A program made the position numbers. A stretch of 64,000 nucleotides of DNA from Escherichia coli O157:H7 (lineage in GTDB: Bacteria; Pseudomonadota; Gammaproteobacteria; Enterobacterales; Enterobacteriaceae): NCBI RefSeq assembly GCF_013167455.1, contig NZ_CP038328.1. One strand, written 5' to 3'. Below, piece by piece: positions 60,001-63,000 of this stretch (the first letter of the stretch is position 1; each line of letters starts with the position of its first letter).

Positions 60001-63000
60001 TATCAATGGCTTCCAGTAAATCGCTACAGCAGGCAATTGCCAACATAAAAATCTGGCACAAGGGTGAACAGCGCGCGCCGCATAAACCATTGTTACTGCT
60101 ATACGTATTAGCGGGATACCTGAATGGACATCCGCGCCTTTTCGATTATGGCACGGAAATCTACGAACCTCTGCACAGTTTACTGGAACGTTTTGGGCCA
60201 CAGCGTTCACAGTACCGACCTGATATGCCGTTCTGGCGATTACAAGGCGACGGAATCTGGCAATTACACAATGCCGAGCGTTGCTCAACAGCAGGGAGCA
60301 GCCGACAACCGCCAGTGAAGGAACTGAACGAATACCACGTTGCAGGCGGTTTCGATGAACAGCACTACGCCCTGGTAACCGGCAATAAAAAACTCATCAA
60401 TACTCTGGCGCAACAGATACTCGAAGCGCACTTCACCGAGAGTATTCAGGAAGAAATCGCTGACGAGCTGGGTTTTGATCTCCAGCAAACCCGTAAACAG
60501 CGCGACCCGTTATTTCGCAAAAATGTATTACGCGCTTATAACTACCAGTGCGCAATATGTGGCTTTAATATGCGCCACGATGACACCACCGTCGCGCTGG
60601 AAGCGGCGCATATAAAATGGAAACAGCACGGCGGCCCTTGTGAAATCCCCAATGGTCTGGCGCTTTGCGCAATACACCATAAAGCCTTTGATAAAGGATC
60701 GATTGGCCTGGATGAAAATATGCGGGTACTGGTCTCGGATGCGGTAAACGGCGGAGGGATCGTTGAGAGATTATTCTGGGATTTTGACGGGAAAACTATT
60801 GCGTTGCCGCAGGTGCGTAAAAATTACCCTTATGAGGGGTTTGTGGGTGAGAGATAGACATTCTGTTTACTAATAATTTATAGCCATTCTCTGCTCCTGC
60901 ATCAGAGATATGATGCAGGAATATTAAATACCAGCCACCTATAAATTATGATTTATTAATTTCTGCTTCAGTTAAATCCCTCTGAAAATAGACCCGTTTT
61001 AGTTCCATACATCTTTAAAAATCCCGACCAAATAATGAGATCAGCAAACATCTATTTGAAACGTTGGTTCTCATCCTCAAGATCCTTGATTATTTTAATA
61101 TCAGAAAATTCCATACCGCCGTATCTGGACTTGCAGTTGTAGTAAGTGGCTTCAGATAAGCCACATCTTTAACAGTTCGCCCGTATTCAAGCGATTTAAT
61201 CACGGCGATAATCTGATGCTCAGTAAAAGGGGCTTTACGAATAGCGATCTCCTTCATTGGCAGATTGATTATGCCGGAGGATCTCTAAATGTGAATGGCA
61301 CGATTATGCGGGATATTTACTGTACCAGTCCAACCCTCTGCTTACTGCAATACCAATCAAGAGGGATGGTCCACATTGACGTTTCAAAATCGATTTCTGA
61401 CCAGCGAGCAAAATGCAGCTTACTGGACCGAATAAAGATAAGCAGAGTGAGTTCTGTCGTACAGTGGGTTAGCGGTCTGCCGGTGTAGCTGTCTATTTTG
61501 TCAAGCAACTCAGGGATACGCTTTAACTCCAGCGCCGGACGATGCTGTCGATTACTGGAAGCAACCGCCCCCGACATCTCTTGCGCCGGATCGTAATCAA
61601 TTAACCCGCTTTGCACTGCATAACGCATGATGGCCGTGGTGCGCTGTTGAAGGCGGGAAGCCACTTCAAGACGCCCGGATTTCTCCACGGCTTTAATAGG
61701 AATTAACAGATCACGGGTGCCTAGTTCAGCAATGTTGCGAGTACCAATTGTCGGGAAGATATTGTCCTCCAGGCTCTTTTTTACACGATTAGCATGATCT
61801 TCCGACCATTTTTGGTTGGTTACGAGCCACTCTCTGGCAACCTTCTCGAAAGTAATAATCTCTTTCGCCTGCTCTTCTTTCACAGCACGCTTATGCTCAC
61901 GAGGATCGATACCAGCAGCTACCAGCTTTCTGGCCTCTTCCCTTTTCTTCCGCGCATCCGCCAGTGAAACATCCGGGTAAACGCCGAACGCCATCAAATG
62001 TTGTTTACCGCCAAAACGGAAACGAAATCGCCAATACTTTGAACCGCCAGGTTTTACAAGTAAGGACATGCCGTCGCCGTCAACAAGTGAATACTCTTTC
62101 TCCTCAGGTTTCGCAGAGCGAACTTTAGTATCCGTTAGGGCCATAATGGTCTTCCTTCCATTGGTATCTCGTGAGTATACAAGCAATATCGAATCGGCAA
62201 ATATACTCATTAGTATACTCACAAGCCTGTTGATGTGGGTTGGTTCAGGTTGACTTCAGTTGAGGAGAAAAGCTGGAAAAGCCTTGCGTGGCGCGGATTT
62301 CAGGCATAAAAAAAGACCTCAGTTGAGGTCTATTTACATACTTTTGGTGCCGAAGGCCGGACTCGAACCTAAGTCTCCATAACCTGCTGTAATCACGTTC
62401 CTATTAGCCTTTAAAAGAACAATCGTAGGACCTTTTTGTTCTAGGGGCTACATCTTAAGTTTGATCCGCTGGACGGAATCAAACCGAGTGTTCGTGGCGG
62501 CACAAATCATTAACGTGCCATACCTGCCTTTTGATGTTTATGGAGGTCTAGTGGGTCGGGAGGAAAGAACATTTGTCAGCTATGTGGATGTTAAGTAAAC
62601 GCCACTGCGTTCGGATTTTGAAACCAGTTAAACCCCGTCAGACCTTGTTCAGAATAACTATTTAACTCAATGTTATTTATATGAATTAAGCCATTCAGCG
62701 TCAAAGTAAAACGCCACCGTAACGCCTACGTAACGCACCCGCATTTTGCTGTTTTATTCACTCTTATAGAAACAAAGAGCTGATGAAACGTGAGGCTATC
62801 AGCATCTAATGAACACTGTTCATCCATACAGCATGAAAATTCATAAACTTACACTTGAGCTACTTTCTCAGCTTGTCCCACCGAACCGCAGATACAATAC
62901 CCCAGTTGCCGCTAGGATTAGGCCTACGCCATTTTGCTGTCTCCATGCTACGAAGATACTCAAGAGCTTCAGAAAACGTGCCAAACCGCTTCTGAGCCGT

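Follow-up and report, generated by a model that had tools for sequence, protein, structure and literature searches.

The gene at positions 60006–60857 of the 64,000-nucleotide stretch of Escherichia coli O157:H7 DNA analyzed here (hereafter the window) very probably codes for a restriction endonuclease of the SBD-HNH family, stand-alone and modification-dependent, which is predicted by analogy to sense phosphorothioate (PT) in DNA. This family call is based on the membership score, the fold, the pocket and catalytic residues, and the close identity to tested enzymes, each of which is given below. The allele is clipped at its C-terminus; this clipping is the sole previously unreported feature of the gene, and the activity that the clipped protein may have is extrapolated from its relatives.

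The open frame in the ORF list extends from 59850 to 60857 on the plus strand, and its ATG at 60006 gives a 283-aa protein that begins with MASSKSLQQAIANIKIWHKGEQRAPHKPLLLLYVLAGYLNG. The product is identical to ECs_5254 of O157:H7 Sakai and WP_000168589.1 of EDL933, whose annotated start coincides with 60006. The annotated alleles of other strains have an equivalent start, and the NCBIfam profile match opens near it (residues 6–280). A 335-aa ORF from 59850 was rejected, since the 52 codons that it adds run into the nanM fragment and have neither homologue nor profile support. RefSeq names the identical O157:H7 records (100% match) 'phosphorothioated DNA-binding restriction endonuclease'. This name is correct, and the function was thus already annotated, which the sequence-only reading had missed together with the absence of a conserved C-terminal helix. 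A literature search by locus tags found no study of the gene, and no experiment on the exact O157 allele was found in the literature. Z5898 is DruE and is distinct from this gene.

Table 1 Features of the SBD-HNH nuclease gene and its surroundings in the window.
Feature	Position	Strand	Basis
nanM (yjhT) internal fragments, diverged, abutting the nuclease gene	59646..59933	+	blastn; partial match to Pfam NANM / NF010730
Retained native upstream DNA, about 75 nt, common to other E. coli alleles	59931..60005	+	DNA alignment
SBD-HNH nuclease gene (ECs_5254 / WP_000168589.1), 283 aa	60006..60857	+	ORF; NF045808 match
Sulfur-binding domain (SBD), about residues 5–142	60018..60431	+	phmmer, Foldseek, conservation
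Helical linker between SBD and nuclease, about residues 143–166	60432..60503	+	AF2 secondary structure, pLDDT blocks
HNH (beta-beta-alpha-Me) core, residues 182–236	60549..60713	+	Pfam PF13391 HNH_2
3' junction, end of homology to full-length alleles	60846..60857	+	DNA and protein alignments, column statistics
Perfect 10-bp inverted repeat TCCTGCATCA/TGATGCAGGA, 6-nt loop	60895..60920	+	Repeat search
IS3-family transposase remnant	61038..61316	-	84.5% match to annotated IS3-family transposases; weak HTH_Tnp_1
Truncated P4-type integrase	61317..62222	-	Arm-DNA-bind_3 and Phage_int_M; no catalytic domain

The protein matched NF045808, whose RefSeq name is that given above, with 417.5 bits (E = 2.2e-125; profile positions 2–275 of 284) against a curated cutoff of 180 bits. 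A word-indexed search with the 283-aa protein returned 3821 homologues at E ≤ 1e-5, and an exhaustive search returned 6742 cluster representatives at E ≤ 1e-3. The gene is real, and its match numbers are far beyond chance. Residue conservation was counted over 135 family representatives. In a local Pfam scan the protein gave HNH_2 alone and no N-terminal family; homologues have a precomputed PF26340.1 match, which this local scan did not return. PADLOC has no dedicated model for the SBD-HNH class, and the protein obtained generic HNH and type IV matches there.

The sequence-only reading had proposed that the N-terminal region reads DNA modifications as in type IV restriction enzymes, to be checked against SRA, SBD, and PUA-like domains. 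That comparison pointed to an SBD, both by sequence (including NF045808) and by fold. In phmmer, residues 5–142 matched the SBD of ScoMcrA (5ZMO; E = 7.5e-9), and the N-terminal region also matched the ScoMcrA SBD structures 5ZMM and 5ZMN (E of about 1e-8 for the three entries). The AlphaFold (AF2) model of the O157 protein showed a confident two-domain fold (pLDDT 94.9, pTM 0.88), with lower confidence around residues 161–170. Foldseek with this model returned 5ZMO (TMt 0.79, rmsd 2.9 Å), followed by 7CC9, 7CCD, 7CCJ, and 8H0L, with TMt values of 0.71–0.77 for SprMcrA SBDs and 0.63 for the Hga SBD. The top 12 PDB matches were ScoMcrA and SprMcrA entries only (isolated SBD-DNA complexes, SBD-SRA, and full-length ScoMcrA), and the matches below them included the HNH enzymes TagI, VcaM4I, and EcoKMcrA and the Hga SBD. 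Pfam and NCBIfam scans of the protein gave no SRA or PUA match, and the fold search gave no SRA, PUA, or EVE structure matching the N-terminal half.

The sulfur pocket was complete (H26, K27, M74, P75, and R78), and these residues aligned with H116, R117, Y164, P165, and A168 of ScoMcrA, respectively. Lysine at position 117 is the common state, Y164M binds more strongly, and A168R is tolerated (PMC6224610). K27 was conserved in all 135 representatives, P75 in 132, and H26 in 122. The O157 protein also has the motif KPzzLL..PF..L..W described by Lutz et al., and the putative base-contact loop (G97-S-S-R-Q101) was the same in the O157 and W alleles. These results support the assignment of the N-terminal reader, as judged from sequence and model, as an SBD and neither an SRA nor a PUA domain. 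A reader of base modifications (5mC, 5hmC, glucosyl-hmC, or 6mA) with an SRA, PUA/EVE, or McrA-N-like fold, which would make the protein a methyl-directed type IV enzyme, is very improbable. The nearest N-terminal PADLOC model was PDLC03662, 'Type IV methyl-directed restriction enzyme' (E = 1.8e-8), but the alignment covered positions 95–229 of 560, which is the position of the SBD in ScoMcrA. ScoMcrA also cuts 5hmC and Dcm-methylated DNA, though via a separate SRA domain, and the HNH half of the O157 protein resembles those of TagI, VcaM4I, and EcoKMcrA. However, the N-terminal 150 residues matched SBD structures only (TM 0.63–0.79), the SBD, linker, and HNH domain fill all 283 aa and leave no space for an SRA domain, and EcoWI-class enzymes are PT-dependent and have no SRA (PMC7461809).

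The C-terminal HNH domain, likewise anticipated in a stand-alone protein of ca. 280 aa, was recovered as Pfam HNH_2 (E = 3.7e-10), and the C-terminal region matched the HNH domain of TagI (6GHS) in both phmmer and Foldseek. The zinc ligands (C182, C185, C221, and H224) and the catalytic residues (H202, N216, and H225) were present and conserved in 130–135 of the 135 representatives; the roles of the CxxC/CxxH zinc finger and the H-N-H residues were assigned after PMC7461809. SRA/PUA-HNH enzymes (TagI, ScoA3IV, and VcaM4I) aligned with the O157 protein via their HNH halves only. The linker between the two domains is variable in the family and may set the cleavage distance (Lutz et al., PMC7461809).

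EcoWI, an SBD-HNH phosphorothioate-dependent enzyme of E. coli (Lutz et al. 2020, PMC7461809), is most likely WP_000168572.1 of E. coli W. This identification is based on the strain name, the mass (33.31 kDa computed vs. ca. 33.3 kDa published), and the listing in Hu et al. 2023 (PMC10602919), where EcoWI is an entry separate from the other tested E. coli homologue, 'Eco'; neither Lutz et al. 2020, in its main text or its supplement, nor the EcoWI-seq paper gives the accession. The O157 protein was identical to WP_000168572.1 at 273 of the first 280 residues (96.5% overall), the seven substitutions being T50S, I84F, R92L, G156R, T162I, H208Q, and G278V (O157 residue first). Both proteins share the SBD-linker-HNH order, the pocket, the base-contact loop, and the zinc and catalytic residues, whereas the terminal EWHRKEVFRG is missing from the O157 protein, which is shorter by 7 residues, and the upstream and downstream DNA of the two genes differ. 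EcoWI is a Mg2+-dependent dimer that cuts GpsAAC/GpsTTC at N7/N6, and it completely restricted dnd+ plasmids in vivo (PMC7461809). The O157 protein was also 74.8% identical to WP_000199891, the E. coli ScoMcrA homologue 'Eco' (Liu et al. 2018, PMC6224610), whose SBD binds Rp-PT DNA, whose proline mutant loses binding, and which reduced the transfer of a dnd cluster 1000-fold. 'Eco' bound the GpsGCC, GpsAAC, and GpsATC contexts equally (PMC6224610). It is a paralogue of the same family and architecture, located at the leuX/integrase island end in E. coli W/LY180, opposite to the EcoWI-like gene, and unlike the O157 protein it retains its tail and its full length (291 aa).

More distant relatives differ in domain content and in what they read. 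ScoMcrA of S. coelicolor and SprMcrA of S. pristinaespiralis are type IV PT-dependent enzymes with SBD-DNA structures (5ZMO, 5ZMM, and 7CC9). They share with the O157 protein the SBD fold (TM 0.72–0.79), the pocket logic (H, K/R, P, and a hydrophobic lid), and the HNH effector, but only ca. 20% identity. Head and SRA domains are additional in ScoMcrA, which cleaves with Mn2+ at a distance that varies (ca. 23 bp); SprMcrA also needs Mn2+. The lid residue is Met in O157 and Tyr in ScoMcrA, and the base-contact loop is GSSRQ instead of SRGRR, which suggests a different sequence context. TagI, VcaM4I, and EcoKMcrA (SRA-, EVE-, and NEco-HNH, respectively) have related HNH domains and the same design of a modification reader with a dimeric HNH; their readers flip or sense modified cytosines, whereas the O157-type reader would sense backbone sulfur. 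DndFGH and SspE also belong to DNA phosphorothioation biology (PMC7461809), but they spare PT-marked self DNA or need host PT, whereas the SBD-HNH type attacks PT-marked DNA.

On the basis of these relatives, the N-terminal winged-helix SBD would dock on double-stranded DNA and hold the Rp sulfur of a phosphorothioated backbone in the small hydrophobic, positively charged pocket described above, while the adjacent G97-SSRQ loop would read the bases nearby. The zinc-stabilized HNH domain would work as a dimer, with H202 as the general base and N216/H225 acting with Mg2+ to make a double-strand cut on one side of the mark, a few bp away. If the O157 enzyme behaves like its 96.5%-identical E. coli W counterpart, it would prefer GpsAAC/GpsTTC and cleave at N7/N6. 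Only incoming DNA from dnd-positive bacteria (plasmids, conjugative elements, and phage) would be cut; we propose that self DNA is spared because it carries no phosphorothioate in the O157:H7 host. From the homologues at 96.5% and 74.8% identity, the enzyme is predicted to bind and cleave Rp-PT DNA preferentially and to restrict dnd+ DNA. Target specificity, dimerization, a dnd-negative host, and above all the activity and expression of the clipped allele are inferred as well.

In the O157 allele a rearrangement has put G-E-R-stop in place of the family tail E-W-H-R-K-E-V-F-R-G (10 residues swapped for 3), and the protein ends in ...FVGER instead of ...FVEWHRKEVFRG as in the full-length allele. 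The lost WHxxxVF motif is nearly invariant in the family: W282 was conserved in 135, H283 in 130, V287 in 123, and F288 in 129 of the 135 representatives, with no gaps at these columns. In the model of the full-length W protein, the tail extends the helix to 277–286 with pLDDT of ca. 95, whereas in the O157 model the helix ends at 280 and the final residues drop to pLDDT 71. Full-length alleles match all 284 NF045808 positions, and the O157 match stops at 275. The missing tail-coding sequence was sought throughout the window, as a frameshift or a displaced segment, and was absent. The WHxxxVF helix is a profile feature and not a published family criterion; it bears on the intactness of the allele and not on its descent. 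The TagI and ScoMcrA papers describe no role for the equivalent C-terminal helix. The residue of the puzzling TagI mutant H288A does not map to the WHxxxVF motif. Loss of the tail could abolish folding, dimerization, or catalysis, and because this conserved helix is absent, activity in O157 is not assured.

As the sequence-only reading had stated, the gene lies between Zorya and an integrase: zorE (58362–59465; NF041791, 694 bits) ends 540 bp upstream on the same strand, and the truncated P4-type integrase is downstream. In blastn against the intact nanM of the window, 59689–59933 corresponded to 26344–26588 (93.5%, 245 bp) and 59646–59691 to 25961–26006 (89%); RefSeq labels the nanM fragment a pseudogene, and the fragments are a rearrangement scar. 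Alignment with other strains showed that all native upstream DNA except ca. 75 nt has been replaced in O157, and the retained piece contains a weak GGGA ribosome-binding site. Consensus scans, which are uninformative here, found no plus-strand sigma-70-like site between 59515 and 60006 and called no terminator for the nuclease gene. The inverted repeat lies 38 nt past the stop codon, within the non-homologous downstream DNA, and may form a hairpin; it has no T-run, and the terminator scan did not pick it up. At the IS3-family remnant RefSeq annotates a frameshifted partial transposase.

The leuX island of E. coli W carries the gene at its nanS-side edge, and the same gene (96–98% nucleotide identity) is found at this edge in strains without adjacent Zorya. 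In E. coli W it is next to McrBC-like and type I R-M genes, and in strain 536 its neighbors are unrelated genes. In the K-12 derivative RR1, a frameshifted pseudogene remnant of ca. 200 nt is present at the locus. Dnd/Ssp models gave no match among the six large neighboring island genes searched, and less than 3.6% of SBD-HNH genes are near dnd clusters (Lutz et al., PMC7461809). A role of the HNH protein as an accessory factor or second effector of Zorya II, or as a selfish homing or mobile-element nuclease, is hardly credible. Its gene follows zorE in the same orientation, the scan called no terminator in the interval, and ZorE is likewise an HNH protein; however, the nanM pseudogene fragment intervenes, PADLOC and NCBIfam give the protein no ZorE match, E. 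coli W and 536 have the gene with no Zorya next to it, and single-gene homologues restrict alone.

A decaying relic, that is, a PT-dependent family member inactivated by rearrangement whose product is inactive, poorly folded, or unexpressed and has no defense role in O157:H7, is a substantial possibility. Consistent with such decay, the WHxxxVF motif is lost, the flanks are debris (nanM fragments, the IS3 remnant, and an integrase without its catalytic domain), other lineages such as RR1 keep mere remnants at the locus, and the consensus scan called no promoter. The allele and both junctions were present in 307–309 genomes, and the serotyped records among the matches listed were all O157:H7, so that this conservation could be simple clonality. 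On the other hand, the other 280 codons are intact and the catalytic, zinc, and pocket residues are all kept, AF2 still gives the confident two-domain fold, and PGAP sets no pseudogene flag on ECs_5254. Substitutions are also largely synonymous (dN/dS 0.09 between the O157 and W alleles and 0.09–0.17 in the comparisons made; 4 of 17 O157-specific changes alter a residue), although this argument is weak because the truncation is not dated relative to the substitutions. Since the helix is lost and yet the binding and catalytic residues are all kept under apparent purifying selection, the clipped allele might instead have an altered oligomeric state or altered coupling of sensing to cutting, for example as a nickase, a PT-DNA-binding replication blocker, or an enzyme of relaxed specificity. 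We consider this unlikely; if true, the role of the WHxxxVF helix could be read from a natural variant in a major pathogen lineage.

As a phosphorothioate-sensing SBD-HNH nuclease, the gene product is plausibly a fourth, single-gene defense element of O-island 172. The earlier suggestion of a separate single-gene element agrees with the lack of a Zorya match, the occurrence of the gene elsewhere without adjacent Zorya, and the restriction of PT-DNA by close homologues (PMC7461809, PMC6224610). A 2025 preprint on O-island 172 (10.1101/2025.09.22.677730), which used DefenseFinder, credited the measured phage resistance to the other three systems, and the nuclease gene is absent from it. This fourth layer would target DNA from dnd-positive Enterobacteria and not the phages tested so far. 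PT-dependent SBD-HNH nucleases have had structures and biochemistry since 2018–2020, and thus the gene adds little that is new in kind. Its C-terminal clipping is a caution for automated defense-system inventories, and the clipped allele is an inexpensive experiment of nature on a helix that is invariant but unstudied.

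The open frame of the nuclease gene contains an ATG at position 60006 that gives a 283-aa protein including the peptide quoted in the sequence-only reading. This ATG is the annotated start in Sakai and EDL933, the start used for the alleles of other strains, and the point at which the match to the NF045808 profile begins; nucleotide homology with other strains starts ca. 75 nt 5′ of it. The 1.8-kb region shows 100% identity to E. coli O157:H7 chromosomes, including those of Sakai and EDL933, where the gene is annotated as ECs_5254 ("restriction endonuclease", within "phage-like element SpLE6") and WP_000168589.1 ("phosphorothioated DNA-binding restriction endonuclease"), respectively. 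The ORF list and these annotations place the gene between Zorya and the integrase, and the observation made from sequence alone was confirmed in full.

Features of the nuclease locus and related positions in the window
Feature	Position	Strand	Basis or remark
Intact nanM	about 25883-27097		
DruE-like/ArmC helicase	31750-38088	-	2113 aa
zorA2-zorB2-zorE	55935-59465		Precedes nuclease gene
nanM (yjhT) internal pieces, two	59646-59933		Fused directly to leader of nuclease gene
Open frame	59850-60857	+	ORF list
Homology with 536 and W-type loci	~59931 to ~60846		DNA alignment; begins 75 nt 5′ of ATG
Nuclease gene	60006-60857	+	ORF, annotated start, family profile
Segment shared with O152:H23 strain	60847-61037		~190 bp, just past truncation point
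Inverted repeat	60895-60920		Perfect, 10 bp; 6-nt loop
IS3-family remnant	from ~61038		
Truncated integrase (SpLE6)	61317-62222	-	Beyond nuclease gene

The O157 protein scored 417.5 bits against NF045808 (curated NCBIfam cutoff, 180 bits), and Pfam placed HNH_2 at residues 182–236. In sequence searches, residues 5–142 matched the sulfur-binding domain (SBD) of ScoMcrA (5ZMO, 5ZMM, and 5ZMN; E about 1e-8) and that of SprMcrA, and residues 167–250 matched the HNH domain of TagI. An exhaustive homologue search (E ≤ 1e-3) gave 6742 representatives, of which 135 diverse ones were aligned; the AlphaFold2 model built on this alignment was confident and had two domains (pLDDT 94.9, pTM 0.88). The best 12 Foldseek matches in the PDB were all ScoMcrA or SprMcrA entries (target TM-score ≤0.79), comprising isolated SBD-DNA complexes, SBD-SRA, and full-length ScoMcrA, followed by the HNH enzymes TagI and VcaM4I, the Hga SBD, and EcoKMcrA. 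In this search the N-terminal half had no match to any SRA or PUA/EVE structure, and a reader of base modification of the SRA/PUA kind was ruled out by fold and family. Thus, the suggestion of an HNH nuclease with a modification-reading domain was supported, and sequence matches together with the predicted fold identify the reader as an SBD.

Functional residues were mapped using the ScoMcrA alignment and the residue roles of Liu et al. 2018 (PMC6224610). The sulfur pocket residues H116, R117, Y164, P165, and A168 of ScoMcrA correspond to H26, K27, M74, P75, and R78 of the O157 protein. In ScoMcrA numbering, Lys is the most common residue at position 117, Y164M strengthens binding, and A168R is tolerated (PMC6224610). 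K27 was conserved in all 135 representatives, P75 in 132, and H26 in 122. The base-contact loop S187RGRR191 aligned with G97SSRQ101. The zinc ligands (C182, C185, C221, and H224) and catalytic residues (H202, N216, and H225) were all kept and are nearly invariant among the representatives, in agreement with the CxxC/CxxH and H-N-H pattern described by Lutz et al. 2020 (PMC7461809). Family, fold, and residues of the O157 protein are established by this analysis.

EcoWI is an E. coli SBD-HNH enzyme, Mg2+-dependent and dimeric, that targets GpsAAC/GpsTTC, cleaves at N7/N6, and completely restricts dnd+ plasmids in vivo; no accession is stated for it (Lutz et al., PMC7461809). E. coli W encodes WP_000168572.1 (290 aa), directly adjoining nanC-nanM-nanS′, with a computed mass of 33.31 kDa (published for EcoWI, about 33.3 kDa; PMC7461809). 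The second E. coli W/LY180 paralogue, WP_000199891 (291 aa, 33.41 kDa, beside the leuX integrase), corresponds to the protein that Liu et al. called the "E. coli ScoMcrA homolog", which binds Rp-PT DNA and cut dnd-cluster transfer 1000-fold (PMC6224610). In Hu et al. 2023, "Eco" and "EcoWI" are separate entries among the verified proteins. Because of these separate entries, the presence in E. coli W, and the mass agreement, EcoWI is most likely WP_000168572.1. The two W-lineage paralogues are 76% identical and occupy opposite ends of the leuX island (comparison loci L006, 37974-38846, and L007, 6842-7717); one adjoins the integrase, and the other adjoins nanS′ near McrBC-like and type I R-M genes. 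The O157 protein shares 273 of its first 280 residues with WP_000168572.1 (96.5% identity) and is more distant from WP_000199891 (74.8%). Since it is so close to the probable EcoWI, and the base-contact loop does not differ among the O157, W, and 536 alleles, the O157 enzyme would be expected to prefer GpsAAC/GpsTTC as well.

Outside the stretch homologous to 536 and W-type loci, the native upstream DNA has been replaced by two pieces of diverged nanM. Their identity to the intact nanM of the window is just 93.5% and 89%, so the fragment probably arrived with the island from another lineage and not by local duplication. At the 3′ end, G-E-R-stop stands in place of the final ten codons (E-W-H-R-K-E-V-F-R-G), followed by unrelated DNA and the IS3-family remnant. 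The lost positions were gapped in none of the 135 representatives (W282 in 135, H283 in 130, V287 in 123, and F288 in 129). In AlphaFold models, the terminal helix of the W allele spans 277–286 (pLDDT about 95); that of the O157 protein ends at 280, and pLDDT falls to 71 over the last residues. Full-length alleles cover all 284 positions of NF045808; the O157 allele reaches 275. The missing tail is thus predicted to be a structured element, not a floppy end, and its coding sequence was found nowhere within the 64-kb window. The missing helix and displaced upstream region favor the main rival explanation, that the O157 allele is an inactive relic, to which we give somewhat less than an even chance. 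However, dN/dS against the W allele is 0.09 over the remaining 280 codons, and only 4 of 17 O157-specific nucleotide changes fall in residue-changing codons, which speaks against simple decay, albeit weakly since the truncation may be more recent than these changes. Of 5426 complete E. coli genomes, 307–309 carry the clipped allele together with both junctions, and among the matches listed all serotyped records are O157:H7.

A site scan called no promoter-like or terminator-like sites for the gene. The inverted repeat (TCCTGCATCA / TGATGCAGGA), 38 nt past the stop codon in the DNA replacing the native 3′ end, was not called a terminator because it has no T-run. The segment just past the truncation point recurs with 94% identity in an O152:H23 strain (genome-search match H91, NZ_CP062901.1), where a transposase and a WYL-domain gene adjoin it; the nuclease gene is therefore joined at its 3′ junction to a piece of an unrelated island.

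Some match to the gene was found in 4950 of 5426 E. coli genomes, with at least 80% coverage in 1913. In W and 536 it follows nanC-nanM-nanS′, and the K-12 derivative RR1 has only a frameshifted remnant of roughly 200 nt (locus L004, 5011-5216). Within the leuX island, the family is long established at the fim-proximal edge. Variation at the locus is high (matches H47–H85): full-length alleles show 95–98% or about 70% nucleotide identity, other genes match over the 5′ 250 nt or the 3′ half alone (about 89% identity), and short remnants such as the RR1 pseudogene also occur. This pattern looks like mosaic recombination, possibly with SBD swapping, and repeated decay.

[quoted passage not shown] A 2025 preprint (10.1101/2025.09.22.677730) places these three on O-island 172 and credits them with the measured phage resistance; it does not mention the nuclease gene. 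A role as a Zorya accessory was ruled out, since the gene is present independently of Zorya in other strains. C-terminal residues 2021–2096 of the large helicase match positions 282–357 of PADLOC PDLC00645 (E = 5.8e-9), the last 75 residues of ZorE; two different defence systems of one island thus apparently have a small domain in common. The SpLE6 integrase ORF has Arm-DNA-binding and central domains but no catalytic domain match and is labelled partial in RefSeq, so the element is unlikely to be mobile.

The best-supported reading is that the O157 gene product is an EcoWI-type enzyme. Its SBD would take the Rp sulfur of GpsAAC/GpsTTC in incoming DNA, and a presumably dimeric HNH with Mg2+ would cut both strands a few bp from the mark. 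The host, presumed dnd-negative, would be spared by making no PT-DNA; no Dnd/Ssp model matched among the large neighbouring genes. The gene is of a known, already annotated kind, a type IV/IIM restriction enzyme, and is unusual in O157 only in having naturally lost an invariant C-terminal helix.
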